Assembly: GCA_963514005.1 (NCBI GenBank)
Contig: OY740805.1
Location: 21,700,001-21,764,000, forward strand
From: Raja brachyura
Lineage: Eukaryota
Direction: 5' to 3'
Length of the DNA stretch: 64,000 nucleotides
Shown: positions 170 through 63,590 of the stretch, piece by piece
Position numbering within the stretch: the stretch's first letter is position 1
Layout of the letters: every line of letters begins with the position of its first letter
Made by a program: the position numbers and the translations under genes
The notes under the pieces: generated by a model
Told to the model about the DNA's origin: nothing
The model's input: only the letters and a program-made list of their open reading frames with translations
The model's database searches: none

Positions 170-960
170 CTCCAACTAAAAACAGAAGACTGAAAACATT
201 CAATGGCTCAAGCAAAATAATTGGAACAAATTGTTGATATCACAAATAGGGTCAAGAACCTGCACCCGGCATGTGAGGGAAGAGGATGGCAGGGAGGAAT
301 AGGGCGAGGCTGGTGAATAAAATGTAGAACCAGGTGGGGAGAGGATAATGGGTAAATGGAAACAGGTAGGAGAGGAGGAATAAGAGGTGAACCGCAGGAG
401 AATAAACTTTTCAGGTGAGACAGAGGTTCACTTGCACCTCTTTCAAATTTCCCTACTGCATTCCCTGCTCACACCGTGGTCTTCTCTACATTGGAGAAAC
501 TAGCTTAGACGTCAACCATTTTGTAGAGCACCTACCCTTTGAAGTAAACAGAATCCTGAGACGTTGTATGGTATTTTAACCCCTTTTCCCACTCTCACAC
601 TGACCCATCTGTCGTTAACCTTAGGCACTGAAAGTTTCAAGTAAAATGTCTGATAATCCACCTGGGTACCTTACAAGCCGATGGTATGAATATAAAGGTT
701 TCACATTTCAGCTTATCCATACCACTGGTGTTCATTTGTTCTCCCACAACCACCCCTACACTAACTTTGCTCCATCTGCCCATCATCCCCTTCCCAGCTG
801 ATTCCACCTGCCACTTACCAGCCTCTGTCCCATTCCTCCTTCAACCTGTTAGAATCTGGCCATCCTCTCCTTCAAATCTAATGCAGTGCCTTGACTTGAA
901 ATGTTGGTATATGTCACTTGCCTCCACAGATGCTCTTTGACCAAGTGCTTCCACTGGCCT
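170..960. mobile_element. Old degenerate PLE (GIY-YIG end plus pLTR, +) with an inverted 5' segment
   Basis: CAGGTGAGACAGAGGTTCACTTGCACCTC at about 412 matches the QVRQRFTCT region of the intact PLE; the purine-rich block upstream mirrors the pyrimidine-rich 3' UTR. Confidence 0.6.
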
Positions 961-1129
961 TTCTTTAGTCTAAAATTCTTGTTGGAAATAACCACAAAGT
1001 CTTACTCTATCTATAATTGAAACCATTTAATTGGTGATCTGAGAGAGCTTTCTAAAATCATGAGGGTGATTGACCAGGATTTATTTTACCCAGGGTAGGG
1101 TATCAAGAACCAGCAAAAACAGGTGTAAG

Positions 1130-1734
1130 CAGTGTTCAATGTTAATTCTTTAGGTGTCAAAGCTATCAAACTGCGGCGTCATTTCAGATTTTGCTGGGGG
1201 GGCAAGATAGTCTCCCTAGAGGGTCAAACAAGATTATAGCCTATCACTACATCCCAGCGTATAGATAGTACATTCAAACATATAATACTTAATTTAATAA
1301 TGACAAAATATTGCACGATTGCACTCACTGATTATCACAAACTATAATTATGAAGCAAGTAAAGAGATATACGGTTGTCATGTATTTTTACAGAGGTGCC
1401 GGCAACACACCGACACACCCTGACTATCCCGCAGCTCTGGGCCTTCACACACACTCACCCTCACACCCACTCACCCACCCACCCGAGTTCCAGGCTCATC
1501 AACAGGCCCACAACCACAAACAATGCACACATCACATGGCCAGACTCTGCTGCATCCTAGTGCTCCCCCTCCAACAGGGAACCTCAGTAGTGATGGTGCT
1601 TCCCCTTACCTCTCTTTTAATAAGGATACCCCGATCACACATCCGCTAGTTAAAATTCCACGCTGTTTATTATTTTTTTTAAACTGAGTTGCCGGATCGG
1701 TGCTCCGGTCCGCTCCGGCAGCACTGCACCCCTG
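1130..1734. mobile_element. hAT-like non-autonomous element inserted in a CR1 fragment
   Basis: CAG...CTG ends with imperfect TIR, 8-bp TSD GGTGTAAG/GGTTTAAG; CR1 sequence resumes on both sides (about 1040-1129 and 1735-1980). Confidence 0.55.
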
Positions 1735-11767: not shown

Positions 11768-12560
11768 TGTGTAAGAAAGAACTGCAGATGTTAAAATCGA
11801 AGGTAGACACTAAATGCTGGAGTAACTCAGCAGGTCAGGCAGCTTCTCTGGAGAGAAGGAATGGGCGTTATTTTGGGTCGAGACCCTTCTTCAGACTGAT
11901 GTCAGGGGAGGGACAAAGATAGAATGTAGGCGGTGACAGTAAGACTGGTGGGAGAATTGCAAAGGGGGAGGGGATGGAGAGATAAATGGAGGGCTATCGA
12001 AAGTTATAGAAGTCAATGTTCATAACGCTGAAGTGTAGACTGCCCAAGCGAAATACGAGGTGCTGTTCCTCCAATTTGTGCTGGGGCTCACTCTGACAAT
12101 CGAGGAGGCCCAGGACAGAAAGGTCAGATTGGGAATGGGAGGGGGAGTTGAAGTGCTGAGCCACTGGGAGATCAGGTAGGATAAGACGGACTGAGCGGAG
12201 GTGTTCAGCACAACGTTCGCCGAGCCTGCGCTTGGTCTCGCTGATGTAGAGAAGTTGACAACTGAAACAGCAGATACAGTAGATGAGGTTGGGGGAGGAG
12301 CAAGTGAACCTCTGCCTCACCTGGAAAGACTTTGGGTTCATGGATGTAGTCGAGGGGGGAGGTAAAGGAACGGGTGTTGCATTTCCTGCGGATGCAGGAG
12401 AAAGTATCGGGGGAGTGGGTCGTTCGGGTGCGAAGGGACGAGTTGACCAGGGAGTTTCGGAGGGAACGATCTCTGCGGAAAGCAGATAGTGGTGGAGATG
12501 GGAAGATGTGGCCAGTAGTCGGATCCTGTTGCAGGTGGCGAAAATGTTGGAGGATTACAT
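11768..12560 (-). mobile_element. PLE 3' fragment (GIY-YIG plus pLTR)
   Basis: ORF 11994-12341 homologous to the C-terminus of the 58452 element. Confidence 0.9.
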
Positions 12561-13122: not shown

Positions 13123-16100
13123 TTAGTGTTCATAGCTTGTTTTGGGTGGGGGTTGGGAGATGGAGGAAACTTTTTCTAATCTCTTACCTCGATGTAGAAG
13201 CGATTTTTTTTTGGTATCGTATCTCCGGCCACACTGGGGCCTAACATCGAGGTGTTGGCGGCCTTTGCTTTTTTTTTAAGTGTGACTATATTGTAATCTG
13301 AATTTCATTGAACCTTAATTGGTACATGTGACAATAAACTGACCTTGAAACCTTGAAAAAGATGTGGGATTTTCTGTAATCCGACTCGCCAAAGCCACTT
13401 TGTGGCCTCTATTGTCCCCTTTAGTTTTAAGCTTTAGAGATACAGCACAGAAACAGGCCCTTCAGCCCACACTGGGGACAATTTACATTTATTCTAAGCC
13501 GATTTACCTACATACCTGTACGTCTTTGGAGTGTGGGAGGAAACCGAAGGTCTCGGAGAAAACCCACGCAGTCATGGGGAGAGCGTACAAGCTCCTTACA
13601 GGCAACACCCGTAGTCAGGATCAAAGGCGGGTCTCCAACGCTGCAGGTGCTGCAAGGCAGCAACTCTCCAGCTGTGCCACTGTGCCACCCTCTACTCACC
13701 CACTCGAGTTATTCCCTCCTTTCTTTACATTCCTCATAGCTCCTGCCTGATTCCATCCTCCTGATCCTTACATGCACTTTCTTTTTGTTTCTTTCTAGTT
13801 AAGTTTATCACCTTTTTGGTTATGCAAGCTTCCATTCCTTTGCCATTCTCATCCTTCCTCACACTGGAACTGGTGATTAAATAACTCATACATAAGTCAT
13901 GGGAGTCACGGTAACAGGACAATGTACCAGGACATTGTAACATGTGCATATCCATTCCACCTGTGCTTATAATGCAGAATACTTCCTACTTTCAATGGGA
14001 TTTTCTGCCAATAATATAAACCACCTGATTGCCACATGCATGAAGTCAACACAATTTAAGAAGGACACAAGATAGACACCAGAAGCTGGAGTCACTCAGC
14101 ATCTCAGGTGAAAAGGAATGTGACATTTTGGTGGCAGGTGTGAAGGAGGTCTCAACCAGAAACATCATCTATTCCCTTTCTCCAGACTTGCTGCCTGACC
14201 CACTGAGTGACTCCAGCTTTGTGTGTTAATCTTCGGTTTCAATCAGCATCCGCAGTTCCTTCCTAAAATTAAGAAAGACACAACGTGTTGGGGTAACTCA
14301 GCAGGTCAGGCATCATCTCTGGATAATCCACAGGCTACGATCTTTAGGTCCATCTGCTTGCCGTTTCCTAGGAAACTGTTCCTGATTAATCTGTTCAGTG
14401 CCACTCCCGGGTATACTCGGGTCATGGCCAATAGTGAAATAAAAACGTGGCAGCAACAGATTAACAAGGTGTGGACAGAATGTGGGGACTTCAGTACAAG
14501 TTTTTGATCCAAGACCAGGTGAGAGAGAGGGGGAAGACAGAGGGGGGAGAGAGAAGGGGGAGAGAGGGAAGAGGGGAGACGGGAGCGTGGGGTTCATTTT
14601 CCCCACACAAGCCATAGGTGAATGGGTGATCCGAACCCAAGCACCAAGTTGAAAGCGGCCGAAGGTGCGCACCCCTCGAATCAGCCCCCAATCTCCCACG
14701 ACCACACTCTGCGGGCTGCGGGTCGGATGGAGCCGAGATGTGGGACAATGTTCATCCGTTCACAGTGATGTGATGGACGCGGGGGTCTGGACCAATCGCT
14801 GACAAGTCCCGCCCCCGGCAACGTCAAGACCATTATTGGACTGGTCTGTTGAGCGGTAGTCGGTCCTTTAGCTTGGAGGTGATGCCGCCTTTCGGATAGG
14901 TGGTGTTTCGACAGAGCAGCCATTCGGTAAGTTTGCTTTTGGCGATGCAGCTTTTCGGCTCGTTGGCTTTTAGGCGTCCCACCCTTTTGGTTACTTTGTG
15001 TTTAGGCGTCCCATCCTTTCGGTTAGTAGGGGTTTCGTCTTCGTCTTCATTCGGTTTATTGGCGTTTCGGCCTCATTTCTATTCGGTTCTTTGGCTTCGA
15101 CGTCTTTGCTTCAGCTTCTCGTCCGTCAGTGCCACGTCCGGGTACCGGACCAAGGGTCTGGTAGAATCTCCACATAGTGAGAGGGAGCTGTGTTACCCCT
15201 TCTACTTTGCTCCCGCTTCCCAAAGAGGAAAATGGAAGGACGAGGAGCATGACATGGACAATGGAAGCATGGAAACAGGCACTTCGGCCCAGCCAGTCCG
15301 CACTGACCAGTGATACCCGCACATTAACATTATCCCACACACACTAGGGACAATTTATATTTATATAAAGCCAATTAGCCTACAAACCTGTATGTCTTTC
15401 AAGTGTGGGAGGAAACCAAGATCTCTGAGAAACCTCAAGCGGTCACGGGGAAAAAGTACAACCTCCATACAGACAGCAGGCTTGTACCTTGGTCTATGGC
15501 ACTTTGAGGCAGCAATATGTTTACAAAAGTTGGAAGAATTATGCCTGTGGCAGAAACACCACTGCAGAATCCCAACCTGATCCTATCTTATGGATGGCTC
15601 TTCCTATCAGAGAACCTGGAATTAAGATGAAAGGAAAGAAACCCTGGATCTATGCCCCAGGTGTGAAATAAGCTCATATTTGTTACAAGGACAATTATTT
15701 CGTATAGGTTAGAGATAAAGCATGAAAACAGGCCCTTCAGCCCACTGTACCCACATTGACCAGCAATCTCTGTACATCAGCACAATCCTACATACGAGGT
15801 ACAATCTACAATTTTTACCGAAGCCAATTAACCTACAAACATGTGTGTCTTTGGAGTGTTGGAGGAAACTGGAGCACCCAGAGAAAACCCTCACATTCAC
15901 AGGGAAAATGTACAAGCTCCGTACTGATAGCACCCGGAGTCAGGATCGAACCCAGGTTTCTGGAGCTGTGAAGCAGCAGCTCCACCGCTGTGCCACCACG
16001 CTACCCTGTTGTCATTAGTATTGTGCGCTGAAATGTTTCCATCAGTGATTATGGCAACTCTCTCCAAACCTGTATACATTTTCAGTAGACCAAGCAGTTC

Positions 16101-16495
16101 CTCGTTCCACCTTATTAGGCTGAGTTATTGGATGGCTGAACTCTTTTGGGAACCTCCTTAGTGCAAGTTTGATTTAGTTTAGTTTAGAGATACAGTGCAG
16201 AAACAGGCCCTTCAGCCCACGGAGTCTGCACCAACCAGTGATCCCAACACATTAACAATATCCTACACGCACTGGGGACTATTTACATTTATACCGAGCC
16301 AATTAACCTACAAACCTGTACGCCTTTGGAGCGTGTGTGGAAACTGAAGATAGCGGGGAAAACCCACACAGATCACGGTGAGAATGTGAATGTAAATCTT
16401 GAATCAACACTGTAAAATGGTTCTGTGAAGGGAAAATGGAGGTCAGGCGAACTGGGTTGAAACTTAAAATGTCTGCTGACCAAAGTTGCTGACTA

Positions 16496-16685
16496 CACAA
16501 AAAGCTGGAGAAACTCAGCGGGTGCAGCAGCATCTAAGGAGCGAAGGAGATAGGCGACGTTTCGGGTTTTCTACCCGAAACGTCGCCTATCTCCTTCGCT
16601 ACTTAGATGCTGCTGCACCCGCTGAGTTTCTCCAGCTTTTTGTGTAACCCTCGATTCTCCAGCATCTGCAGTTCCTTCTTTAACA
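16496..16685. mobile_element. Palindromic PLE pLTR derivative with 15-bp TSD
   Basis: 74-bp inverted arms (16494-16567 and 16573-16646, one mismatch) plus a tail of about 39 nt; TSD CAAAGTTGCTGACTA at 16481-16495 and 16686-16700; near-identical to 59960-60033. Confidence 0.9.
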
Positions 16686-17035
16686 CAAAGTTGCTGACTA
16701 TGTGGCTGCAGGTTTCAGAAAGTTGTGATCCTGAGAAATACACATTATCCTGCTGATGCTGATCTGCTGATCGCTACTTTCATATTCCTCGCACCCGTCT
16801 GATTGAGGTGGCTGATTTTCAGAAGGCTGAAGAATATGCAAACCACTGGCTCCCGAAAGTCTGAGAAATGTCCCTGTCTTAGCTCTAGTGTTGTTCCACT
16901 AATTAACATCTCCCATTGTGTACGTGCCTGTTATCATGACCATTGTGTACAGGTCTGTTGGTTAATTGGGTAATGTGGGAGGGGCTAAACGGTGGCATTA
17001 ACATATATAAAGCATTGGGGTTGGACAAGCCCAAG

Positions 17036-17727
17036 TCTTAAGGGGTTGGACAAGCTAGATGCTGGAAGATTGTTCCCGATGTTGGGGGAGTCCAGAACAA
17101 GGGGTCACAGTCTAAGGATAAGGTGGAATTCCTTTAGGACCGAAATGAGGAAAACATTCTTTACACAGAGAGTGGTGAGTCTCTGGAATTCTCTGCCACA
17201 GAAGGTAGTTGAGGCCAGTTCATTGGCTATATTTAAGAGGGCGTTAGATGTGGCACGAGTGGCTAAAGGGATCATAGAAACATAGAAACATAGAAAATAG
17301 GTGCAGGAGTAGGCCATTCGGCCCTTCGAGCCTGCACCGCCAATCAATGTGATCATGGCTGATCATCCAACTCAGTATCCCGTACCTGCCTTCTCTCCAT
17401 ACCCCCTGATCCCTTTAGCCACAAGTGCCACATCTAATGCCCTCTTAAATATAGCCAATGAACTGGCCTCAACTACCTTCTGTGGCAGAGAATTCCAGAG
17501 ACTCACCACTCTCTGTGTAAAGAATGTTTTCCTCATTTCGGTCCTAAAGGAATTCCCCCTTATCCTTAGACTGTGACCCCTTGTTCTGGAATCAGGGTGT
17601 ATGGAGAGAAGGCAGGTACGGGATACTGAGTTGGATGATCAGCCATGATCACATTGAATGGCGGTGCAGGCTTGAAGGGCCGAATGGCCTACTCCTGCAC
17701 CTATTTTCTATGTTTCTATGTTTCTAT
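17036..17727 (+). mobile_element. CR1 3' end containing a near-identical antisense CR1 copy (17274-17590)
   Basis: Matches 40796-41168; (TTTCTATG)n tail at 17727 and inverted tail at 17274; ATC duplicated at both junctions. Confidence 0.92.
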
Positions 17728-18212: not shown

Positions 18213-19073
18213 TGTGGCTCATCTAAGACGGTGTGCCCACATTGATTTAATTTATGTGATGGTGTATTGGCAGTTTATAAGGTGCAGCAGTGAGGGGGAA
18301 CCTCTGTGTTACTCCAGTTGCTGCGGGGACTGGAAACAGCAAGGCACTCCCCCCCCCCCCCCCCCCCCCCCATCTCAGCAGAAGCAACCTGGGGATGAAT
18401 TAAGATGCACTGTGTCCTCATTTGCCTTCTCACACCTGCTTTTATACAGGTTGGTAGACTGTCAGGACCACACAAATATGCACTTTTGGGGTTTGAATAT
18501 GGTTGGGTGAAGTTTCTGTGTTGTTTTGGGTGTTAAGAAAGTTGAAGTTAGTGGGTTACTGGTTGTTAATGTTTCTGTGTGCTGGGTTGGAAGATATAAT
18601 AATGTGTAGCATGGGCATGTTTCTTATTAGGTCATTCCATAACCTGTGATGGTTGCAGACATTGCAATGAGGATATGGCATAGAAAAAAAAGGCCAAATG
18701 TCAACTTTTAGCATGTTGCTGGAAATGTACAGTGAAGGTTAATTAAGTGCCTAACAATATTTATTGAAGTGTAAAATCAAAAATACAAGTGTGTAAATCG
18801 CACAGAGAGTGTATTGAGTACAAGGGAAACATAGGAAAGAATGGGCTGTGAGTGAAACTGTAACAAAATGGGTGTGTTAGGGAGAGACAAAATGGATGAC
18901 TGAACCAATGATAAGAGCAATGTTTTGTGTTTACATGATTATTGAATAAAACAACCAGCAGAAGCAACCTGGGGATGAATTAAGATGCACTGTGTCCTCA
19001 TTTGCCTTCTCACACCTGCTTTTATACAGGTTATCTATCTGCTTTACGGTGCCCAACCTTGGGACCCGTAACA
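18213..19073 (+). repeat. 5' LTR (861 bp)
   Basis: Direct repeat of 25711-26577; about 9 substitutions by eye plus a poly-C length difference; AATAAA at 18945. Confidence 0.97.
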
Positions 19074-19078
19074 GATCG

Positions 19079-19096
19079 TGGGAGCTCGTCCGGGAT
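19079..19096 (+). promoter_or_regulatory. Primer binding site, tRNA-Pro type
   Basis: TGGGAGCTCGTCCGGGAT matches the classic tRNA-Pro PBS TGGGGGCTCGTCCGGGAT at 17/18 positions, 5 nt downstream of the LTR end. Confidence 0.9.
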
Positions 19097-19255
19097 CGGC
19101 GCCACTTCGTGGTTGGAGTGGAGCTGATCAACTAATGACACCTGAGACCGAGACAGGGCTGATTCGAGCTGAGTGCCGAGAGCGGTGAGTCAGAGCAGAG
19201 ACTGTGCCATTGCTGAACTGTGATCCATCGTGAAAGACGGTGAAAAGCTGCTGCC

Positions 19256-20848
19256 ATGTCAGAGAGTGGGAGGAAGAGCCTAGTGTGGGACATTCGGAAG
19301 TCACTGCTCACCTTGTCAGCTGCAGAGCTTTTTCACATCGCCAAAGAGATGGGTTCAACGCCAGATTGGGACCTGTCTGAACTCCATGAAGGAGACCATG
19401 AAGGCTGCTTCGACAAAATCAGTTCATTCATGTACAGTAAGCATTTGTTAGAGTCAGAAGACAGTGGAATGTCTGAATTGTTGGGTTTGAAAGATGCTAT
19501 TGATGATATTGTAAAGACCCGAAAAGTATTGTGTTTGCCAGAGCTAGAAATACAACCCATAGGTGCTCACGGAGATACTACTAACCAAATGTTCCAAGTC
19601 AGTTCTACTTTGCCAAACAGTGATGCTTTCACCACTGACCCAGTACTACCTACTGCTGTATCTGACTCCACAAACGCAGAGTTACTCGAAATGCTCACTA
19701 GCTATGAGGAGCTTGGTAAAAGGCTGAAACAAAGCATTATGGTACCGACAACTCAGTCACCAGAAGACTGTCCGCCAGTAGCAGCACAGGCTAATAAGTC
19801 TCAAAGTGACTCATCATACCACAACCCGACAGTTGTTCAACCCAATCGAGAGGGGATGATTTCCATAAGAGATCTCGCCTATCTCCAGAGAAGGGAGTTT
19901 AAGGTACAAGGGGGCCAGGTTGGTGATCATTCGTCAGACATCAGTTATAGCAATGTCTGTAAGCAAATAGAAGAAGGGATCAAAGAAGGCTTCCATGATG
20001 CAGAGATAGTTCGTGGTGTGCTCCGGATAATGAAACCTGGAATTTTTAAAGAGATGCTAATGAACAAGGATGACTTGACTGTGATGGAACTCAAGGGATT
20101 TCTCCAGGCTCACCTAAGAGAAAAAAGCAGTGCAGAGTTATTCCAAGAGTTAATATGTGCCAAGCAGGAGGAGAACGAGACACCACAACAATTCCTCTAT
20201 CGTGTCATAGGTTTGCAGCAACGTGTCCTATTCACATCAAAACTGTCAAACGCAGGTATAAAATACAGTGCAGCTACTGTTCAAGATGGCTTCCTACATA
20301 CAGTTTACCAGGGATTAGGCTACAAACAATCTGAGCTACGCAGAGAAATAAAACCTCTCTTGTCCAGTGGTGAAGTAAGTGATGAGACAATATTGCGCCA
20401 GGTAATGAAAATCACCAGTGAAGAAAGTGAGAGACAAAAGAGGATAGGTCCTTTTCGTCGGCAGGCTGCAGTTCATGCACATGGTGCACAGTTTGAGCCG
20501 AATACAGCAAAAGAACAGGGTAGCAAGCAAGAGAGTGTGGCGCCAAAAGTAAAGACAGACCCAATTAAAGAGCTTACAGCCAAGGTAGATGAGCTCACAA
20601 GTATGATTGAGGCCATGAAACGACAAATTAAGCCACAACCAACAGATGTGAGGAACCAATATTCTCAATATAAAATGAGACCCAGGAGAGATAAATCATA
20701 CGGTTGTCCAAAATGTGTTGAACAAAACCGCCCAGACTCTAACCATTGTTTCTCATGTGGCGAGGAAGGCCACAGAGCTGTTGGCTGCTTAAAGAAACAG
20801 AAGAGTCAGGGAAACTTGCACCGGTCGCTGCAGGGGGGCGCCCAGTGA
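19256..20848 (+). CDS. gag: Gypsy Gag polyprotein, 530 aa, intact
   Basis: Long ORF after the PBS, capsid-like QEENETPQQF motif, C-terminal CCHC knuckle CFSCGEEGHRAVGC. Confidence 0.93.
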   Translation: MSESGRKSLVWDIRKSLLTLSAAELFHIAKEMGSTPDWDLSELHEGDHEGCFDKISSFMYSKHLLESEDSGMSELLGLKDAIDDIVKTRKVLCLPELEIQPIGAHGDTTNQMFQVSSTLPNSDAFTTDPVLPTAVSDSTNAELLEMLTSYEELGKRLKQSIMVPTTQSPEDCPPVAAQANKSQSDSSYHNPTVVQPNREGMISIRDLAYLQRREFKVQGGQVGDHSSDISYSNVCKQIEEGIKEGFHDAEIVRGVLRIMKPGIFKEMLMNKDDLTVMELKGFLQAHLREKSSAELFQELICAKQEENETPQQFLYRVIGLQQRVLFTSKLSNAGIKYSAATVQDGFLHTVYQGLGYKQSELRREIKPLLSSGEVSDETILRQVMKITSEESERQKRIGPFRRQAAVHAHGAQFEPNTAKEQGSKQESVAPKVKTDPIKELTAKVDELTSMIEAMKRQIKPQPTDVRNQYSQYKMRPRRDKSYGCPKCVEQNRPDSNHCFSCGEEGHRAVGCLKKQKSQGNLHRSLQGGAQ

Positions 20849-20869
20849 TCGGATCTGAGAAACGTCCCC
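20809..20869 (+). promoter_or_regulatory. -1 programmed ribosomal frameshift signal (G GGA AAC plus H-type pseudoknot)
   Basis: Slippery heptamer 20809-20815 in the gag frame, pol in the -1 frame, 5-nt spacer, stem 20821-20830/20843-20852, loop GGGGGCG complementary to CGTCCCC at 20863-20869. Confidence 0.85.
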
Positions 20870-23800
20870 AAACTCAAACTGATTGTGATGACAACAATAC
20901 AGATCTTCCTTTGTCCACCACTTCAGAAGTAGCGAGCACACAGTACAATGACAAACAAAGCAAATCATCTTCTCAGTTCTCTTTTGAACCACAATGTACC
21001 AAACGTAAAGCTGTCGCCAACATGATAGGAAAGAAGGCTCTGATACAATGTAATCCAAGTGGTTTGGCGGTAACTGCATTGCTTGACTCGGGCGCACAAG
21101 TTAGTATTATCAGCCGTGCCTGGAAAGATCTACACCTGCCTGATCTAAACATTCGACCAATGTCTGAGATCATTGAGGAACTGGATGAGCTAAAGGTTTA
21201 TGCAGTCAATGGAGAGCTCATTCCTTTTGATGGATGGGTTCCTATAATGACCAACCTACCTGGGAATGAGGACCCAAGTCTTGCCATCAGTGTCCCATTC
21301 TTAGTTAGCAGCTTGACCATGGAAAGACCGTTGATTGGTTTTAATGTTCTTGAGCAGCTTGTTGAGGGACAGCCAGAAAGGTTAGTACCTACTCTGATAC
21401 AGTTGTTTCAGAATGCCATTGGTGTTTCAAGTGAGAAAGCCGAAGCAGTGGTGAGTTTTATTCAGACAGTGGAGCCAAGTATGCCACAAGGACTGGTGCA
21501 AAGGACGTGGTCGTTCCAGCTGGACAAGTCAGCTGGGTGAGATGCCGGGTTCCCCCAACCATGAACTCCTATGGCCGTCTGGTATTGTTCGAATCAGACG
21601 AAGGCAGTCAGCCTTTGGATCAGCTAGATCTAGGAGCAGGTTTGGTTGAAATGCAGAATCCTTTAAAACCGTATGTCACCATTGCTGTTGGCAACAACAC
21701 CAGCCATGACATTATCTTGCCACGTAAGACAGCCCTGGGCACCTTACAGCATATTGAAAGGGTTGTGGAAGCTGACCCTCCAAGAAAAGTGGCATCCATG
21801 ACAACAGTCAACGAGGTCACCTCTCAACTTCATCAACCAACTCCATCACTGTGGCATCCGCTCGTGAACCTTGATCACCTGGAGGAAAATCAGCAAGAGG
21901 TTGTCAGGAAAATGTTATTTGAGGAGTCAAAAGCCTTTGCCAGAGATGAAAATAATATTGGATGCAACCCAAGCCTGCAAATGGTGATAAATCTGAAAGA
22001 TGACATTCCTGTGCAGAGAGCGTACACATCCATCCCAAAACCGCTGTTGAGAGAAGTAAAGGAATATGTTCAAGACCTCCTTGTCAAGGGATGGATTGTG
22101 AAATCTAGGTCCTCCTATGCCGCTCCAGTTGTGTGTGTGCGGAAGAAAGACGGTACGCTGCGCCTCTGCATAGATTATCGTCTATTGAATCAGAAAACGG
22201 TGCCGGATAGACACCCACTGCCTCGAATACGAGACTTGCTGGACACCTTGGGTGGTTACTCGTGGTTTAGCATCCTTGACCAGGGTAAGGCCTACCACCA
22301 GGGTTTCGTGGCTGAAAGTTCACGTCATCTCACTGCTTTCATCACACCCTGGGGGTTTTATGAGTGGGTAAGGATCCCGTTGGCCTATCAAACGCGCCAG
22401 CAGCATTCCAGAGAAGTATGGAGGAGATGTTGAGTTCGCTGAGGGATGAGTGCTGTATACCCTACCTCGATGACATCCTCTGCTACTCGCGGTCATTTGA
22501 AGATCATGTGGAAGTGGTCCGCAAGGTTCTCCAAGCTTTGCAACATCAAGGGGTAAAGCTCCGATCTGAAAAGTGTGAGTTGTTCAAGCAAAAGGTTCGC
22601 TATGTTGGCCGCCTTGTCTCTGCTAACGGTATTCGAGTTGATCCCAAGGACCTGAATGCTGTGCTGGCTTTGAAAGACAAAACACCACAGACGGTAGGTG
22701 ATTTGAGAAGGGTTCTCGGTTTTCTCAGTTACTACAGGACATACGTTCAAAACTTCTCAAAGATAGCAAAGCCATTGTATGAGATGCTCCAAGGGAAATC
22801 CTCAATTCAAGTCCAGTCGCGACAAGGTAAAGCCAAGGGACCCCAACTGTCATCCAGGGCACCCATACAGTGGACTGCTGAACATCAAAGTGTACTCGAG
22901 AGACTGATTGACATGTTGACACATCCACCGGTTTTGGCATACCCAAACTTCGACAGGCCTTTCGTCTTGCATACCGATGCATCAGAGCAAGGTCTAGGAG
23001 CTGTTCTCTACCAGCAACAGGAGGGAAAGCTACGAGTCATTGGGTATGGGTCACGGACTTTGGCAGCTGCAGAGAGGAACTACCATATGCATAGTGGCAA
23101 GTTGGAGTTCCTTGCACTTAAGTGGGCAGTGTGCGAGAAATTTAGGGACTACCTCTATTATGCTCCACACTTTACCATCTTCACTGACAACAACCCACTT
23201 ACTTACATCATGAGCACTGCCAAACTCAATGCGGTTGGTCACCGGTGGGTGGGAGAACTGTCAGACTTCCATTTTGACATCAGGTACAGACCAGGAAGAG
23301 TCAACACGGACGCAGATACCCTGTCCCGAGTCCCTCTTGATATTGACCAGTACATGTCAACATGCACAGAGGAGTTGTCGCAGGATGTAGTGAATGCAGC
23401 TTGGGAAGGAAGTCAAGCAGCCCAGAGGAAAGATGTGGCATGGATAGCCGCTCTCGCTGTCTCCTCTCAAGATGTTGTCCTACAGCCCCGCGCCCCTCTA
23501 CACAGCATTAGTCATGACGACTTGGTCCAAGCTCAAAGAGAGGATCCCGAGATAGGAAAGATCTTAAAGCTCAAAGAGATGAACAGTAAATTGACAGACG
23601 ACATCAGAAGGACTGTGAGGGGAAGCGCATGCAAGCTTCTGCATGAGTGGAGCAGGTTGGACATCGAGGATGGGTTGCTGTACCGAAGAACAACAAGTAG
23701 GAAACAATTAGTACTACCTCTGAAATACCACCCTGTGGTATTAAAGCACCTCCACGACAACATGGGACATGTGGGCATGGAGAGAGTTCTTCACCTCGCC

Positions 23801-38700: not shown

Positions 38701-39179
38701 TGAAAGTCAATTTACACTGTAGAAACAAGGAACTACAAATGTTGGTTCGCAAAGAAAGATGCGCAAAGTGCTGGAGCACCTTAGTGGGTAAGGCAGCATC
38801 CCTGGAGAACATGGATATGTGATGATGGATAGATGTTTCGGGTCAAGACCCCTTCTTCACCCTGTGGAAGGGTGTTGATCCTAAACGTCATCTATCCATG
38901 TTTGCTGGAGATGCTGCCTGACCAGCTGAGTTACTCCAGCACTTAGAGATTGACACAAAATGCTGGAGTAACTCAGTGGGACACGCAGCATCTCTGGAGA
39001 GAAGGTCTCGAGCTGAAATGCCACCTATTCCTTTTCTCCAGCGTCACTGGCTGACCCGCTGAGTTACTCCAGCTGTTTGTGTCTATCTTCGGTTTAAACC
39101 AGCATCTGCAGTTCCTCCCTACGCAGCTCTTCCCTTGGCATTGTTCCTCAGCATTGCAAACCATCTTCCCGTTTTAATC

Positions 39180-39348
39180 NNNNNNNNNNNNNNNNNNNNN
39201 NNNNNNNNNNNNNNNNNNNNNNNNNNNNNNNNNNNNNNNNNNNNNNNNNNNNNNNNNNNNNNNNNNNNNNNNNNNNNNNNNNNNNNNNNNNNNNNNNNNN
39301 NNNNNNNNNNNNNNNNNNNNNNNNNNNNNNNNNNNNNNNNNNNNNNNN
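39180..39348. other. Assembly gap
   Basis: Run of N. Confidence 1.
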
Positions 39349-40344: not shown

Positions 40345-41168
40345 TTGTGGATAAATGTGAGGTTATCCACTTTGGTGGCAAAAACATGAGGGTAGACTAT
40401 TATCTGAATGGTGGCAGATTAGGAAAGGGGGAGATGCAACGAGACCTGGGTGTCATGGTACACCAGTCATTGAAAGTAGGCATGCAGGTGCAGCAGGCAG
40501 TGAAGAAAGCAAATGGTATGTTAGCATTCATAGCGAAAGGATTTGAGTATAGGAGCAGGGAGGTTCTACTGCAGTTGTACAGGGTTTTGGTGAGGCCACA
40601 CCTGGAGTATTGCGTACAGTTTTGGTCTCCAAATCTGAGGAAAGACATCCTTGCCATAGAGGGGGTACAGAGAAGATTCACCAGACTGATTCCTGGGATG
40701 TCAGGACTTTCATATGAGGAAAGATTGGATAGACTCGGCTTGCACTCGCTGGAATTTAGAAGATTGAGGGGGGATCTTATAGAAACTTACAAAATTCTTA
40801 AGGGGTTGGACAAGCTAGATGCTGGAAGATTGTTCCCGATGTTGGGGGAGTCCAGAACAAGGGGTCACAGTCTAAGGATAAGGGGGAATTCCTTTAGGAC
40901 CGAGATGAGGAAAACATTCTTTACACAGAGAGTGGTGAGTCTCTGGAATTCTCTGCCGCAGAAGGTAGTTGAGGCCAGTTCATTGGCTATATTTAAGAGG
41001 GCGTTTGGATGTGGCACTTGTGGCTAAAGGGATCAGGGGGTATGGAGAGAAGGCAGGTACGGGATACTGAGTTGGATGATCAGCCATGATCACATTGAAT
41101 GGCGGTGCAGGCTCGAAGGGCCGAATGGCCTACTCCTGCACCTATTTTCTATGTTTCTATGTTTCTAT
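40345..41168 (+). mobile_element. Young CR1 (HER1-like) LINE 3' end, RT C-terminal frame open
   Basis: ORF 40335-41027 KCEVIHFG...RDLGV...LVRPHLEYCVQFWSP...RRLRGDLIE..K...TRGH; (TTTCTATG)n tail. Confidence 0.95.
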
Positions 41169-41799
41169 TTGTATTGTCTTACAGTTCTGCTCAGCTGCTA
41201 CGAGAATGTCATTGATTTGTAGTCAGCACATATGACAATTGAACACACTATACTCTCTTTCCTTCTGGACTCTCTCGTGGAGTGGGAACAAACCTAACAT
41301 AAGTAAAGTGGTGCCATTCATCCTTTGTCCCCAATCTCTGATATTCTATAAGATCATAATTATCCTCTAGCAGACCACCATTTTTCCAAACTAAACTTTT
41401 CCTTTTGTATCCAAGCATCTTTCAACCCTGCCTCAAGCATCTGATTGACTGAATGCCCACAGCCTTCATGGACAGAGAATTTCAAAGACTAATTCCCCTC
41501 TGGGTGAAATAATTTAATCTCTTTACCACACTGAATTCAATGATTCAATAGTATTTTATTATCACAGGCACCGAGGTACAGTGAAAAGTTTTGTTCCGTA
41601 TACAACTCAGTAAAATCATATAGCAGATCTAACCTAGGCAATACACAAGTGTCACCATGTTTTGGTGCCATAAGAATGTCTGAAGCCTTATTTGTAAACT
41701 GTGAATTTTGGTTTCAGACACACCAGTCTGGGGAGAAATAAAAAGACCATCCCTCATGTTCTGAACTTTGACTCGCTTCATAAAGTGCAGAATTTGGAT

Positions 41800-43720: not shown

Positions 43721-43819
43721 AGTGACTGTGCAAATATTTTCCTGATTTTGCATTGTACTTGTGCCTCGCTCTCTTCCGACATTTGACCATAAACTTGAAC
43801 CTGTCAAACAAGGCACTTT

Positions 43820-44740
43820 GTGTGGGAAAGAACTGCAGATGCTAGTTTAACTCGAAGGTAGACACAAAATGCTGGAGTACTCAGCAGGCAGGCAGCATCT
43901 CTGGAGAGAAGGAATGGGCGACCTATCAGGTCGAGGCCCTTCTTCAGACTGATGTCAGTGGATGGGACAAATATAGAATGTAGGCAACGACAGTAAGACT
44001 GGTGGGAGAACTGGGAAGGGGGAGGGGATAGAGAGGGAAAGCAAGGGCTATTTAAAGCTGGAGAAGTCAATGTTCATGCCGCTTGATTGTAAACAACCCA
44101 AGCAAAATATGAGGTGCTATTCCTCCAATTTGCACTGGGCCTCACTCTGACAATGGAGGAGGCCCAGGACAGAAAGGTCATATTGGGAATGGGAGGAGAG
44201 ATTGAAGTGCTGAGCAACCAGGAGATCAGGCAGGTTAAGATGGGCTGAGCAGAGTAGTTCAGCAAAATTATTGCGGAGCCTGCGCTTGGCCTCGCTGATT
44301 GAGAGAGGTTGCCACATGCAACTGCGGATACAGTAGATGAGGTTGGAGGAGGTGCAAGTGAGCCTCTGCCTCACCTGGAAATACTGTTTGGGTCCTTGGT
44401 TGGAGTCGAGGAGGGAGGGAAAGGGACACGTGTTGCATCTCCTATGGTTGCAGGGGAAAGTGCCTGGGGAGTGGGCGGTTTGGGTGGAAAAGGACGCGTT
44501 GACCAGGGAATTTCAGGGGAACGGTCTCCACGGAAAGCAGAAAGGGGTGGAGATGGGAAGATGTGGCCAGTAGTGGGATCCTGTTGGAGGTGGCAAAAAT
44601 GATGGAGGATTATATGCTGTGTGCGACGGCTGATGGGGTGGAGGGTGAGGGCAAGGGGGACTTTGTCATTGATACGAATGGGGGTAATGGAGGGGAGGGG
44701 AAGCAACAGCGGAGCATCGAGGAAACCTTGGTGAGTGGCC
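43820..44740 (-). mobile_element. PLE 3' fragment
   Basis: ORFs 44117-44374 and 44371-44706 homologous to the PLE linker and GIY-YIG; pLTR at 43820-43950. Confidence 0.9.
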
Positions 44741-45006
44741 TCGCCCCTGTTTGTTTTACACGAGTTAAAATCAGTTTAAACCAAGATCAGCAGTTCTTTC
44801 TTCCTCAAAGGAAACGGGGCATGGTGCAAATCAAAGCAGAAATTTCAGTCTGGATTTTACTGAAACAGGAGAGATTAAACCCTTTTAACGTCTGCATGTA
44901 CGTCAGACTAACGCGCATTTTTAAATTTAGTCGCCTCCTGTCCAGATTGAGATTAAGTCAAGACGTTTTCAGACAGTAGAGAATAAAATTAGAATCATTA
45001 ACTTAC

Positions 45007-45186: not shown

Positions 45187-48100
45187 ACCAGCACAAAACA
45201 ATTGACTGCAATGGAGACGCGAGGAGGTGTTGTTGCCGATTTACAACAAAGAAAAAGACACAAAGTGCTGGTGTAACTCAGCAGGTCAGCTCGTAACTCC
45301 GAAGAGCATAGATTGTCGACGATAGACACAAAGGGCTGGAGTAATTAAAGGAATCGAGCAGCATCTTTGGAGAAAAAGGATAGGTGACTATTATCAGTCT
45401 GAAGTAGGTTCCCAATCTGAAAAAGCGCCAGTCAATGTCCTCCAGAGATGTTGCCCGACCTGCTGAGTTACTACAGCACTTTGTTTCTTTCGCACTCTAT
45501 AGCAAATGGAATGGAATGGCAGGGCGTAGTTGCCTGGAACTGTAATTACATTTCAGATACCGCTCCATTCTTGTGCTGCTAACTGCTCCTAATGTTATTT
45601 TATGATTCATGAGACCCATAAATCCAATCGCCTGTCCTAACTTGAATCATTACAATGCAGAAAAAAAAGGAGTAACCAAACACTGTCCACAGCTGGTAGA
45701 GCTGCTGCCTCACTCACAACACCAGAGACCAGCGTTAGATCCTGACCTCTCGCTTTGTCTGTGTAGATTGTCTTTAACAAAGAACTGCAGATGCTGGAAA
45801 AATCGAAGGTAGACAAAAATGTTGGAGAAACTCAGTGGGTGAGGCGGCATCTATGGAACTAAGGAATAGGCAACGTTTCGGGTCAGACCCTACTTGGAGG
45901 GTCTCGACCCGAAAAGTCACCTATTCCTTCACTCCATAGATGCTGCCTCACCTGCTGAGTTTCTCCAGCATCTTTCCTTATCTTCCGCGTAGATTTTGCT
46001 CGTTTTTCCTGTGACCAGCTGGGTTCTTCCCGGGTGCTCTTGTTTTCTCCCACATTCCACAGATGTGTGGGTTTGTCAGTTAATTGTAAATTTACTCTAG
46101 TGTGTGTGGGGGTTGGACTTAAAAGTGGGATAACATTGAACTAGTGTGAAGGGGTGACCTGTGGTCAGCATGATGGGCTGAAGGGCCTGTGACAATGTTG
46201 CATCTTTCAACTCAAAATGGACTTCTGTAAAGACGTTATATTGGAAGCTAGTTTGGACATTGAAACTGTGCAGCGCATGGTGGTGGATATCGACGGCAAT
46301 GGTGTCTGTGAATTTATCAAGGACCTATCTACCAGATATGTGGAGAACTTACACAATAGCATTGGTATTGATTTTTTATTGTCACTTGTATTGAGATGCA
46401 GTGAAAAGCTTTTGTTCGCGTGCTAACCAAATCAGATCAGGAATGACTGAGGGATTGTACTAAATGACAGGGCAGGCTTGTGGGCCTGTTTCAATGCAAT
46501 AAACTCCATATTAATGTACCATATAAAGAATGCAAGTGCTGGTATGGTTGGTGATGAGCCAAAAATATTGATTTTGTAATTCAAGATATCCTCAGTGTTT
46601 CAAGAGTAGAGGAAGTGTGAAGCGTATAGCAGCGGAGACTCGGGACGATTCAGACTAATGGTGCTGTCTGTACAGTGTTTGTACGTTCTCCCTGTGACGG
46701 CGATGTTTTTCTCTGGGTGCTCCAGTTTCCTCCCACATCTCAAAGAAGTACAGGATTTCAGGTTAATTGGCTTTGGTAAAATTGTAAATTGTCACTTGTC
46801 GTGCTATAGTACTAGTTTACCGGGGTCAGCGAGGACTCTGTGAGTCAAGGGCCTGTTTCCGTGATGTACCTCTGAAGTCTAAAGTCATAATGTTAATTTC
46901 GATTCATTTTAATTTTCAGCTCTTAACCAAAATCATTTCAATCAACCCAAAGATGACTGTGTTTCTCCCTCACGACACCAGATTTAAGTCTGCACTTTTA
47001 AAGAGGCTTTTGATTTTGCTCGGATAGTGCTGAACTAATTCACTTTTCTTACATAAGTTATAACTCACAGCAGTGACCACAGTAAGCAAGTGACATCAAA
47101 TATATGTACACAAGAAACGAGAAGCAGGAATAGGCCCACAAGTCACTGGCAGAACTAGTTCAAAGCAACGTTTTAGTCCATATTACTCAACCACTGATTG
47201 AGGCCACATTATTCTGTTCCCTTTTCTCTAAAGTTTAGTTTAGTTTATTATTGTAATGTGTACAATAATACGGTGAAATACTATGTCTTGCATGCTCTCC
47301 AGTCATAATACGCCATACATGAGTGCAATGATAGACAAGTACGAGCAATGATTGTAGTTGGTAATTATAAATATCACAAGAAAAATGAAGTATTTGTTGG
47401 CTGTGAGTAAAATCTGTTCTGCAGCTCAATTAGGTAATGACTGATCTACTCTTCACCAGAAGAGTCTGTAAACAGTAACCCACAACTTCCCAAAGAAACA
47501 AATCCATCCTTCTCAGTACTGTAATGAATCTACACACTGCAGTTGAAAATTCTCACGATTCATTATCATCTGGGAGAAAAATAAAAACAAATTCTCCTCA
47601 CTTTGAAACCTTGGCCTCCCCTTCTGTAATTGATTCAAAGGGGAAGGTTTCCTCCATGAGGGGAACTATCAAGAACAGGAGGAAATAGAACAGGAGTAGG
47701 CTATCAACCCCTGAGAATAGTAACCAAACTTGTCCCGCCATTCAATAAAATGATCAGTGTTCAGTTGGTCTCAGCTCCTTAGATTAATTTGGTTTAGAGG
47801 TACAGCATTGAAACAGGCCCTTAGATCCACTGAGACTGCGCTGACCAGTGATCCCCATACACTAACACTATCCTACACACACTTGGGGCCAATTAACCTG
47901 CATATCTTTGGCGTATGGGAGTAAGCTGGTATCCCCAGGGAAAACCGACACAGGTCATGGGGAGAACATAAAAAATCTATACATACAGCACCCATGGTCA
48001 AGATCAAACCTGGGTCTCTGGCACTGTAGTATCTCTACCGCTGCACTTCTATGCCACCCTTTGCGTCACCGTGCTGCCTAAACAGTTCTATCCTATACAC

Positions 48101-51100: not shown

Positions 51101-51404
51101 AACCTCATCTATTGCATCCGCTGCTCTAGGTGTCAACTGCTCCACATCGGTGAGACTAAGCGCAGGCTTGGCAATCACTTCGCCCAACACCTCCGCTCAG
51201 TCGGCATTAACCAACCTGATCTCACGGTGGCTCAGCACTCCAACTCCCCCTCCCATTCCGAATACGACCTTTCTGTCCTGGGTCTCCTCCATGGCCAGAG
51301 TGAGTCCCTCCGCAAAATGGGGGAGCAGCATATCATTTTTCACTTGGGTAGTTTACACCCCAGCGGTATGAACATTGACTTCTCCATTTTCAGGTAGACC
51401 TTGC

Positions 51405-55854: not shown

Positions 55855-56072
55855 NNNNNNNNNNNNNNNNNNNNNNNNNNNNNNNNNNNNNNNNNNNNNN
55901 NNNNNNNNNNNNNNNNNNNNNNNNNNNNNNNNNNNNNNNNNNNNNNNNNNNNNNNNNNNNNNNNNNNNNNNNNNNNNNNNNNNNNNNNNNNNNNNNNNNN
56001 NNNNNNNNNNNNNNNNNNNNNNNNNNNNNNNNNNNNNNNNNNNNNNNNNNNNNNNNNNNNNNNNNNNNNNNN
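55855..56072. other. Assembly gap
   Basis: Run of N. Confidence 1.
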
Positions 56073-57520: not shown

Positions 57521-58451
57521 ATTGAATAACAGTCGATTGCGTTATCATTTCAATGTGTGCTGATCTGTCATGAAACTTTCCAAGTCAATCCATGTTCACC
57601 ACACTCATAGTCACTTTGAGGTAACATTGGCTGAACAGCTTGTCCCTCCTAGTAATCTTGATAAGGAATGTCAGGCCAAGTATATCATGGCCTATTAATT
57701 CATAAAATCAGATTCAAATCAACATCTCCATTCCCATTGACATGCGATTTACACATTGGCCATGAAGATTTTTTCCACAATGGATCTCAACCAAAAACAT
57801 CACCATTCCTTCTATCCAGAGATGCTGCCTGTTCCACTGAGTTACTACAACATTTTGTGTCTATCTTCTGCTTAAACCAGCATCTGCAGTTCCTTCGTAT
57901 ACATTAAGAATTCCTTGGACATGTTTAACATGGTTTGAACTCATTGTTTGAAAACAGAATTCGTTAACATTGTCCAATAGGGAGTGTGAGTGTTTCTGGA
58001 AGTAAATGCCACAATTTGTTTGCTTTTCCTTGTGAAAGACTGTGCTTGGTTTTGGGTTTCCTGAATCAACTGTAATCAATATCAGACTGACAGACAAAAA
58101 GCCTTGTTCTCGCCATTAACTATGGAGTAGACTGCAATCTAGTTCAGACTAGGCTGTGATGTCTCCCAGTAAATTGAAATAGCTCTCAAACATACCATGT
58201 GAAAACTGATCTTCAAAGTTCAGTCGTGTGAGGAAAGTATTGCAGAGAGTGTGTCTCCTTACAGCTAAAGCAGAACAAGAGGTCAGTACACTTGTAAAAG
58301 AGAAATTGATTTAAACATTTTAAATAACCTACATCGTTCCAGTGAATGCCATCTTGTAACAAAAAGGTCTGTTATCAATAGATTATGAGAGGTGGCTGTT
58401 GATTGAATTGAATTGAATACTTTATTGTCACATGTGACAAGTCTCAGTAAA

Positions 58452-59699
58452 CGCCTAGCGGAGTTGGTCCTTACCCTAAACAACTTCTCTTTTGACTCCT
58501 CCCATTTCCTCCAAACACAAGGCGTAGCTATGGGCACACGCATGGGCCCTAGCTACGCCTGCCTCTTTGTCGGGTACGTCGAACAATCTTTGTTCTCGAC
58601 GTACCAGGGCCCCACCCCCGACCTTTACCTCCGTTACATTGACGACTGCTTTGGTGTCACCTCCTGCACCCACGCAGAACTGACTGACTTTATCCATTTC
58701 ACCACCAACTTCCATCCGGCACTCAAATATACTTGGACCATTTCCGACATTTCCCTACCATTCCTTGACCTCACCATCTCTATTGCAGGTGACACACTCC
58801 TGACTGACATCCACTACAAACCAACTGACTCCCACAGCTACCTGGACTACTCTTCCTCCCACCCTGCTTCCTGTAAGGACTCCATCCCCTATTCCCAATT
58901 CCTCCGACTACGCCGCATCTGCTCCCAGGATGACGTGTTCCACACCAGGTCATCGCAAATGTCCTCGTTCTTCAGAGAACGGGGTTTCCCCTCCCCCACT
59001 ATCGATGAGGCTCGCACCAGGGTCTCCTCCATACCCCGCAACACTGCCCTCTCTCCCCATTCCCCCACTCACAACAAGGGCCGAGTCCCCCTGGTCCTCA
59101 CCTTTCACCCCACCAGCCAGCGCATACAACAGATAGTCCTCCGCCAGTTTCGCCACCTCCAACGTGACCCCTCCACTCGCCACATCTTCCCATCTCCCCC
59201 TCTATCTGCCTTCCGCAAAGACCGCTCCCTCCGCAACTCCCTCGTCAATTCTTCCCTTCCCTCCTGCTCCACTCCTTCCCCGGGCACTTTCCCTTGCAAC
59301 CGCAAGAGATGCTACACTTGTTCCTTCACCTCCCCCATCCACTCCTTTCAGGGACCCAAGCAGTCATTCCAAGTCCGACAGAGGTTCACCTGCACCTCCT
59401 CCAACCTCGTCTACTGCATCCGTTGCTCCAGATGCCAGCTAATCTACATCGGTGAGACCAAGCGGAGGCTAGGCGATCGTTTCGCCGAACACCTCCGCTC
59501 GGTCCGCAATAACCAACCCGACCTCCCGGTGGCTCAGCACTTCAACTCCCCCTCCCACTCCGTATCCGACCTCTCGGTCCTGAGCCTCCTCCATGGCCAG
59601 AGTGAACAACACCGCAAGTTTGAGGAACAACATCTCATATTCCGCTTGGGGAGTCTGCATCCTCTGGGCTTAAACATTGAATTTTCTCAATTCTGTTAA
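58452..59699 (+). CDS. Penelope RT (C-terminal part) plus GIY-YIG endonuclease, 5'-truncated
   Basis: QGVAMGT, RYIDD, FLD, YKPT motifs, then CxxxxCxxC and VYCIRC...YIGET. The first about 13 residues of track ORF 58413 come from flanking DNA. Confidence 0.93.
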   Translation, partial: RLAELVLTLNNFSFDSSHFLQTQGVAMGTRMGPSYACLFVGYVEQSLFSTYQGPTPDLYLRYIDDCFGVTSCTHAELTDFIHFTTNFHPALKYTWTISDISLPFLDLTISIAGDTLLTDIHYKPTDSHSYLDYSSSHPASCKDSIPYSQFLRLRRICSQDDVFHTRSSQMSSFFRERGFPSPTIDEARTRVSSIPRNTALSPHSPTHNKGRVPLVLTFHPTSQRIQQIVLRQFRHLQRDPSTRHIFPSPPLSAFRKDRSLRNSLVNSSLPSCSTPSPGTFPCNRKRCYTCSFTSPIHSFQGPKQSFQVRQRFTCTSSNLVYCIRCSRCQLIYIGETKRRLGDRFAEHLRSVRNNQPDLPVAQHFNSPSHSVSDLSVLSLLHGQSEQHRKFEEQHLIFRLGSLHPLGLNIEFSQFC

Positions 59700-59940
59700 C
59701 CCAGACTGCTCCTTTCCCCCCACCACCCCCCCCCCCTCTCCCTCAGCCCTCGGGCCCTGACATTCCTTCACCATCTCCCCCCCCCCCAAGTCGCACTAGC
59801 TTCTCATTTTCACACCAGAAACAGCTTACAATGGCCTGCTTTCCTTATCACCAATACTTTTTTGCATATCTTTCACTCATTGTTCTTGCTTTATCTCTCC
59901 ATATCACTGTTTATATCTCTCGTTTCCCTGATCCCTGACC

Positions 59941-59975
59941 AGTCTGAAGAAGGGTCTCGACCCGAAACGTCGCCT
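59941..59975 (+). ncRNA. Minimal hammerhead-ribozyme-like core in the PLE pLTR
   Basis: CTGAAGA-A-GGGTCTCGACCC (helix II)-GAAAC-GTC; helix III reduced to the palindromic ACGT, as in PLE minimal hammerheads; helix I is weak. Confidence 0.65.
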
Positions 59976-60544
59976 ATCTCCTTCACTCCTTAGATGCTGC
60001 TGCACCCGCTGAGTTTCTCCAGCTTTTTGTGTAACTCTCAGTAAAAGTATTTGCTTGCACACACAAGGCATGGAAATAGTTGCCCATAAAGGGCGCTTAC
60101 AAAGTTACAAATTTCCGCCCCCCACGCCAGATCTTACTTTGTTCCTTCCCTCGGCAGCGGCGTGTTCAATTCCACGTGTCCATCCCCATCCATCCGTTGG
60201 CGCCATCATCGACCGCCACACCGGCCTCTTCACTAACGCTGCCGGGTCCTCTCCAGACACCTTCGTGGCACTGACCCAGGCCCCCGCTGCGGGCTCCATC
60301 CACCCAGGCAAGAAGTAACTGTGAGTTGTGTGCAAAGGATTTTTTTCATGTGGTGTCAGCCACAGCATTTCTCCATTCTCAGTCACAGACCCATGGGTCA
60401 ATATCCCACCAAAGAAGCATCAGTGGAATCTAGTGCTGTACAGGGCGTTCTGCAGAGTTTGTGATGCAATTTTACAACCACATGTTAAACCAAAATATTA
60501 CCAGGCCGGCACAATGGCACACTGGCAGAGCTGCTCCCTCTGTG

Positions 60545-63403: not shown

Positions 63404-63590
63404 NNNNNNNNNNNNNNNNNNNNNNNNNNNNNNNNNNNNNNNNNNNNNNNNNNNNNNNNNNNNNNNNNNNNNNNNNNNNNNNNNNNNNNNNNNNNNNNNN
63501 NNNNNNNNNNNNNNNNNNNNNNNNNNNNNNNNNNNNNNNNNNNNNNNNNNNNNNNNNNNNNNNNNNNNNNNNNNNNNNNNNNNNNNNNNN
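63404..63590. other. Assembly gap
   Basis: Run of N. Confidence 1.

Follow-up and report, generated by a model that had tools for sequence, protein, structure and literature searches.

A minimal head-to-head palindrome of Penelope (PLE) pLTR ends in Raja brachyura, very probably a product of PLE integration

A 190-nt palindrome of inverted pLTR ends, located at 16.5 kb in the 64-kb stretch of Raja brachyura DNA analyzed here (the window), is the known insertion architecture of PLEs at minimal size, and a real and clean example of it. It is very probably a one-off product of PLE integration, whichever route produced it, and the route that we favor, with some reserve, is dual priming, in which two cDNAs are joined at helix II of the hammerhead motif. 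The insertion is very short, recent and derived from an endonuclease-bearing PLE; it was likely made in one event, and pLTR palindromes are most likely a recurrent by-product of PLE integration. A preliminary description of this DNA had left two alternatives side by side. The first, a stereotyped minimal product of PLE integration, is supported by several pairs in the window, which have different centers and come from different sequence groups. The second, a self-propagating hairpin parasite, gains no positive support, and the window holds a single young palindrome.

The TSD of the 16.5-kb insertion is a 15-mer that occurs exactly twice in the window (16481-16495 and 16686-16700), cannot be extended, and encloses 190 nt (16496-16685), as the preliminary description had stated. 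It scores 15, against 9 for the best of 146 random position pairs. The best inverted repeat (16494-16567/16573-16646) is 74 bp long with one mismatch (16539/16601) and surrounds the 5-nt spacer TTTCT (16568-16572). The arms, the spacer and the 39-nt tail had thus been described correctly, except that the left arm overlaps the TSD by 2 nt: bases 16494-16495 close the left TSD copy and are at the same time the outer end of this arm, so that the insert consists of 72+5+74+39 nt. Folded as RNA, the insert reaches -147.2 kcal/mol (z -22.6), a stability matched by 0 of 200 shuffles. At the mismatched position, the direct arm carries a private C>A change (16601); it was also considered as a mark of A-to-G editing, which was rejected as the change is C>A (n = 1). 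Coordinates of the features are given in Table 1.

Table 1. Parts of the 16.5-kb insertion, older pLTR palindromes and the young coding PLE in the window
Feature	Position	Strand	Description
Left TSD copy	16481..16495	+	15 bp; last 2 nt form a 2-nt microhomology with the inverted arm end
Inverted tail-less pLTR arm	16496..16567	-	Starts +16 from the hammerhead core C; 74 bp including 2 shared TSD bases
Spacer	16568..16572	.	5 nt; sits where the helix II loop would be; unlike the 4-nt loop of the PLE
Direct pLTR arm	16573..16646	+	Also starts +16
PLE tail	16647..16685	+	39 nt, on direct arm only; homologous to tails of 19 of the 39 pLTR-end matches in the window
Right TSD copy	16686..16700	+	15 bp
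Older head-to-head palindrome (14.1 kb)	14071..14265	+	195 nt; 18-bp TSD with 2 mismatches; within another pLTR copy; asymmetric center ~+16/+1
Older palindrome (28.9 kb)	28842..29041	.	Both arms tail-less, 88% alike; center on the -1 micro-palindrome; no TSD found
Old palindrome (38.86 kb)	38722..38946	-	Tailed arm on minus; degenerate center in the register of the 28.9-kb palindrome; no TSD found
Older palindrome (45.8 kb)	45770..45983	-	214 nt; center ~+3/+5; candidate 12-bp TSD (two mismatches, both CpG-type) whose score does not exceed the null
Young coding PLE	58452..60035	+	5'-truncated, tail-less, same subfamily as the 16.5-kb arms; frame open to 59699; hammerhead motif from 59944

Compared with positions 59960-60033 of the coding PLE, the left arm differs at 1 and the right arm at 2 of 74 positions. 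Both arms have one difference in common, a G that is also present in 4 of 35 other arms and reads, from the sequence, as CpG decay in the PLE copy. The tail-less arm had been said to stop within 2 nt of the PLE end; it is 2 nt short when the two bases shared with the TSD are counted, but 4 nt short otherwise. The coding PLE itself ends at the tail-less site, adjoining its own perfect 10-bp TSD (58442-58451 and 60036-60045). Its frame of 415 open codons covers the C-terminal part of the RT (RT-thumb), a Cys-rich C-x4-C-x2-C linker and a GIY-YIG domain with two internal cysteines, for which the Pfam match (E 3.8e-4) falls below Pfam's cut-off. Of 4795 candidates, 333 are longer relatives of this ORF (E<=1e-20). 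PF00078 is present in most of the 120 that were listed and PF01541 in many, and none of those listed is a named PLE reference element. The linker points to the Neptune/Nematis type, which is defined on the basis of a CX2-5CxxC linker (PMC8557442, partial text), and both features of this type are visible in the translation. Separately from this copy, a fragment at 56545-56772 matches full-length PLE proteins in their N-terminal region (E ~1e-10 by tblastn), and a lone tail-like fragment lies on the plus strand at 44771-44808, just past the 5' end of a minus-strand PLE fragment (43817-44775).

At the PLE end, the core, the extra base before helix II, the G-C closing pair and the palindromic helix III fit by eye what is written on minimal hammerheads in PMC4209133 (partial text), and helix I is weak. 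Rfam gave 0 matches in the whole window at the gathering threshold and, at an E-value threshold, no hammerhead at the PLE end or at the insert, and the predicted fold of the hammerhead monomer of the coding PLE is not a hammerhead. Several sub-threshold matches of the insert to miRNAs and generic hairpins, obtained in the E-value search, were rejected as structure-only. The insert holds no complete ribozyme, because the CUGAAGA core is absent from 16496-16685. When the core C at 59944 is taken as the origin of numbering, both arms start at +16 and their axis, +13.5, coincides with that of helix II in the coding PLE. The earlier statement that the arms meet within helix II therefore holds for the axis, but the 5-nt spacer is not the 4-nt loop of the PLE. 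With DNA parameters, the helix II cDNA dimer reaches -10.3 kcal/mol, compared with -1.6 for its hairpin. Six copies were examined just upstream of the hammerhead core, and 4 of them have a pyrimidine-rich tract, a branch-point-like motif and CAG there (59900-59943, 11885-11935, 43943-43993 and 35128-35178); this combination resembles a 3' splice site, and many short copies seem to start nearby. The intron end in D. virilis has been placed at helix I, and minimal hammerheads occur in opposite-strand pairs 100-700 bp apart (PMC4209133, partial text).

An HMM of the pLTR end, made from 16 in-window copies that match it by construction, finds 39 arms in the window. Their 3' ends are bimodal, with 19 tailed arms (HMM position 294-301), 17 tail-less arms (253-269) and 3 others, and the two outer ends of the 16.5-kb insert coincide with these two classes. 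The 5' ends seem to cluster close to the hammerhead core, but this was given no weight in view of the in-window origin of the HMM and the variation of upstream sequence between subfamilies. Fourteen of the 39 arms form 7 adjacent head-to-head pairs, whereas 20000 shuffles with uniform placement average 0.17 such pairs and never exceed 3; this null is lenient and ignores clustering, since 3 tail-to-tail adjacencies also occur in the window. Five pairs combine a tailed with a tail-less arm, two have both arms tail-less and none is two-tailed. With 5-7 of them in 64 kb, pLTR palindromes appear to occur about once every 10 kb in this genome. The sequence that follows a tailed arm at 49921-49999 could continue toward the ORF start of the element; it has no significant protein match, and the comparison of this continuation with the N-termini of the relatives likewise gave none. 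Exact-pattern scans of bacterial and archaeal genomes for stray copies gave 0 and 0, and are uninformative.

Five of the seven pairs are probable single events (16.5, 14.1, 45.8, 28.9 and 38.86 kb). The 16.5-kb pair is counted as such on its perfect TSD. The arms of the 14.1-kb pair, besides lying within one TSD, have in common a base that none of 35 other arms carries, yet they are not sisters in the tree. The 45.8-kb pair has a weak TSD and both arms in one starred clade, the 28.9-kb pair has similar arms, and both arms of the 38.86-kb pair fall in one weakly supported tree group. The 38.95-kb and 45.3-kb pairs were kept out of this count as possible separate insertions; the former has no minor allele in common and the latter is ambiguous. 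A 34.95/35.1-kb pair was rejected as a palindrome, with a 47-nt gap between the matches and an arm identity of 60%. For an arm of an older pair, the top match is often some arm other than its sister (sister ranks 2 to 26). A TSD search covering 21 loci found a convincing TSD at 3 of them, namely the 16.5-kb and 14.1-kb palindromes and the coding PLE; the candidates at 45.8 kb and at solo insertions do not outscore 17 of the 146 random pairs, whose scores were >=7. The arm tree covers 37 of the 39 arms (two short ones were dropped), and only 3 of its 34 branches are well supported. It groups the 16.5-kb arms with the coding PLE (100/99) and places the 45.8-kb arms in a wider starred clade, outside this trio, with the other pairs outside that clade. 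The five probable events belong to at least three tree groups, two of which are defined by starred branches, so that palindromes would have arisen at least three times. The 14.1-kb palindrome is inserted in an older pLTR copy (14053-14325) near the tail-less end of that copy, which agrees with reports of PLE endonuclease being able to cut the pLTR of its own element (PMC11167929, partial text).

A Ty3/Gypsy-like LTR retrotransposon at 18213-26577 has 867-bp direct repeats with 98.3% identity (18213-19073 and 25711-26577), each with an internal 77-bp direct repeat, and encodes a zinc finger, RT, RNase H and integrase across several reading frames. At 17033-17727, a young repeat copy lies inside a copy of the same family, presumably CR1-like, in the opposite orientation; both are ~97% identical to 40793-41169, and this nesting creates 140-187-bp inverted repeats 350 bp from the 16.5-kb palindrome. 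Assembly gaps are located at 39180-39348, 55855-56072 and 63404-63590 (574 N in total), the first of them ~55 nt after the 38.95-kb pair.

Four different centers are found among the five probable events: +13.5 (16.5 kb), -1 (28.9 kb and, in degenerate form, 38.86 kb), ~+3/+5 (45.8 kb) and ~+16/+1 (14.1 kb). Between -15 and +45, the young pLTR has only two micro-palindrome axes, -1 and +13.5 (helix II), and older pLTR copies have some further ones. The micro-palindrome at -1 has a 1-nt center, forms no hairpin and self-dimerizes. That 3 of 5 centers fall on these two axes has a crude post hoc P of 2e-4 to 3e-3; for 2 of 5, when the degenerate 38.86-kb center is left out, the likewise post hoc P is 0.007-0.046. 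The palindromes at 28.9 kb and 38.86 kb seem to have one center in common, yet belong to different, weakly supported tree groups and apparently to different subfamilies. Therefore, a common center does not show a family, and shared centers are also expected from junction hot spots. The preliminary description had proposed to read shared centers, together with diagnostic SNPs between loci, as the sign of a self-propagating family and unique ones as that of a recurrent by-product. Run in part, within the window, this test gives the diversity of centers described above, but a shared center is not diagnostic: since it can arise without a shared ancestor, the test is weakened unless the spacer and private bases are included, and needs amending in this way.

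Directly seen are the TSD, two arms from the young PLE subfamily, one outer end at the tail end with the other at the tail-less end, and a junction centered on helix II. To explain them we propose dual priming, a term used for a proposed L1 mechanism (PMC2837659, partial text). In this process, the GIY-YIG endonuclease would nick the two target strands 15 nt apart, and each 3'-OH would serve as primer for the reverse transcription of pLTR RNA, in one case from the tail-end site and in the other, with a primer-template match of 2 nt, from the tail-less site. Both cDNAs would halt after ~75-115 nt, in the hammerhead region, and their 3' ends would anneal via the self-complementary helix II (10/12 bp). 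Repair of the unpaired center, a speculative step, may leave the odd 5-nt spacer, and fill-in would finally yield the TSD. In vitro, an Anolis PLE nicks and extends both target strands, and its RT starts at either boundary of the tail; the protein is predicted to dimerize, and insertion does not require hammerhead cleavage (PMC11167929, partial text). The bimodal arm ends in the window match these two start sites and are counted for dual priming, although the in vitro two-strand data come from a Poseidon-clade element and the source PLE here seems to belong to another clade. Also counted is the spacer, which is not a copy of the PLE loop, whereas simple fold-back should copy the loop. The recurrence of head-to-head pairs in several tree groups and the 3 of 5 centers on the two micro-palindrome axes stand on the same side, as does the preference of both axis sequences for dimers over hairpins. 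The inverted PLE coding fragment at 50585-51384 is counted as well: it joins PLE positions 523-911 (minus strand) 5'-to-5' to 823-1235 (plus strand), with ~90 nt duplicated, and resembles twin priming at an internal site.

The sequence by itself cannot separate dual priming from fold-back (self-priming), the main rival and a strong one, which we rate as possible rather than probable. One cDNA primed at the tail end would fold over, through helix II or a few untemplated bases, to copy itself, and the second arm would be trimmed, or stop, at the tail-less site and then be joined to the other target end. The position of the axis, exactly on the helix II hairpin, suits this route. Its two predictions, that the tail-less arm is never longer than the tailed one in mixed pairs and that two-tailed pairs do not occur, both hold in the small sample; the shorter tail-less arm in the two clearly asymmetric mixed pairs (14.1 and 38.95 kb) and the count of two-tailed pairs (0/7) also speak against dual priming. 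The base that only the 14.1-kb arms share is consistent with self-copying as well, and self-priming is the proposal made for junction palindromes in PMC3846280, where the inverted pLTR is shorter than the direct one and overlaps it. However, the 5-nt spacer is not the PLE loop, the -1 center, with a 1-nt loop, cannot form a hairpin, and the outer end of the inverted arm is the site of solo tail-less insertions, for which a second process is needed.

It is improbable that the palindrome represents a self-propagating non-coding hairpin family, or retro-MITE, moved in trans by PLE proteins and copied whole by PLE RT and endonuclease. Although the TSD-bounded palindromes are similar in size (190, 195 and 214 nt), pLTRs suffice in cis for mobilization in trans (PMC3846280), non-autonomous PLE derivatives exist (PMC8557442 and the retrozyme preprint 10.64898/2026.07.22.740005, partial texts) and an unusual spacer could mark a family, the 64 kb contain no second copy with the 16.5-kb center or of its subfamily. 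A search of the 64 kb for dispersed copies sharing center, spacer and diagnostic bases found none, and no base convincingly distinguishes the arms from the coding PLE. The palindromes instead occur in several sequence groups with different centers, and the RNA of such a family would presumably fold into a duplex (-147 kcal/mol) in which the tail-less start site is hidden, and its 5' end would have to coincide with that site. Highly improbable, finally, are two independent side-by-side insertions or an assembly fold-back artifact: insertions of these repeats into or next to one another are seen (14.27 kb and 38.95 kb), but one perfect 15-bp TSD surrounds both arms and none surrounds either arm alone, and the nearly identical arms (1/74 differences) have their outer ends on two natural PLE end sites.

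The insert has the features of a PLE product, that is, pLTR-derived arms, a head-to-head inverted 5'-truncated copy, a 39-nt tail at one end and a TSD around the whole unit, and an inverted pLTR with a short one-sided tail is indeed known PLE anatomy, as had been stated (PMC3846280; PMC8557442, partial text). The inverted pLTR, the one-end tail of 30-40 bp, the single TSD and the junction palindrome are common to Pen2a of Adineta (PMC3846280) and the general PLE scheme (PMC8557442, partial text). In contrast to Pen2a, the insert is without body or ORF, both arms being ~74 nt of pLTR, and its TSD is 15 bp compared with 8-10 bp in the Adineta examples. PAc, a Poseidon element of Anolis, is alike in its two RT start sites bounding the tail and in the nicking and extension of both target strands, but the ORF here has the CX2-5CxxC linker of Neptune/Nematis, and the partial text on PAc reports no joined palindromic product (PMC11167929). 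L1 twin priming and the proposed dual priming also join two cDNAs from two nicks 5'-to-5' within one TSD; twin priming inverts an internal segment, usually with a deletion, whereas the insert has the same 3' segment twice, as in the dual-priming variant (PMC2837659, partial text). Non-LTR retrozymes are likewise short, non-coding and pLTR-related, but are head-to-tail tandems with a type I hammerhead per unit (10.64898/2026.07.22.740005, partial text), and the insert, head-to-head and without the catalytic core, is not one of them. MITEs, too, are short non-coding hairpins with a TSD (PMC8969392, partial text), but the 39-nt tail after the right arm means that the repeat is not terminal there, and the arms match PLE rather than a DDE DNA transposon. 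Neither pLTR-only palindromes as a family nor joins on helix II were found in the literature searched, which was mostly without subscription papers and gives weak evidence of absence.

The origin of the inverted ends of PLEs is stated to be an open question (PMC3846280; PMC8557442 and PMC11167929, partial texts). The locus itself is modest, its anatomy being already known, and its value is that of a test object for the mechanism behind these ends, as within ~200 nt each palindrome displays its junction, the two ends where priming took place and, in some cases, the TSD. Because such palindromes are frequent and compact, a genome-wide table could separate dual priming from self-priming. Such elements could also be mis-annotated as MITEs or pre-miRNAs. 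Were the hairpin family true, the non-templated 5-nt spacer would be its mark, and it would form a dispersed source of perfect dsRNA against its own helper. Should the joins prove to concentrate at helix II, a role as a DNA joining signal or an RT stop signal would fall to the hammerhead stem, and this would fit the finding that hammerhead cleavage is dispensable in vitro (PMC11167929, partial text).
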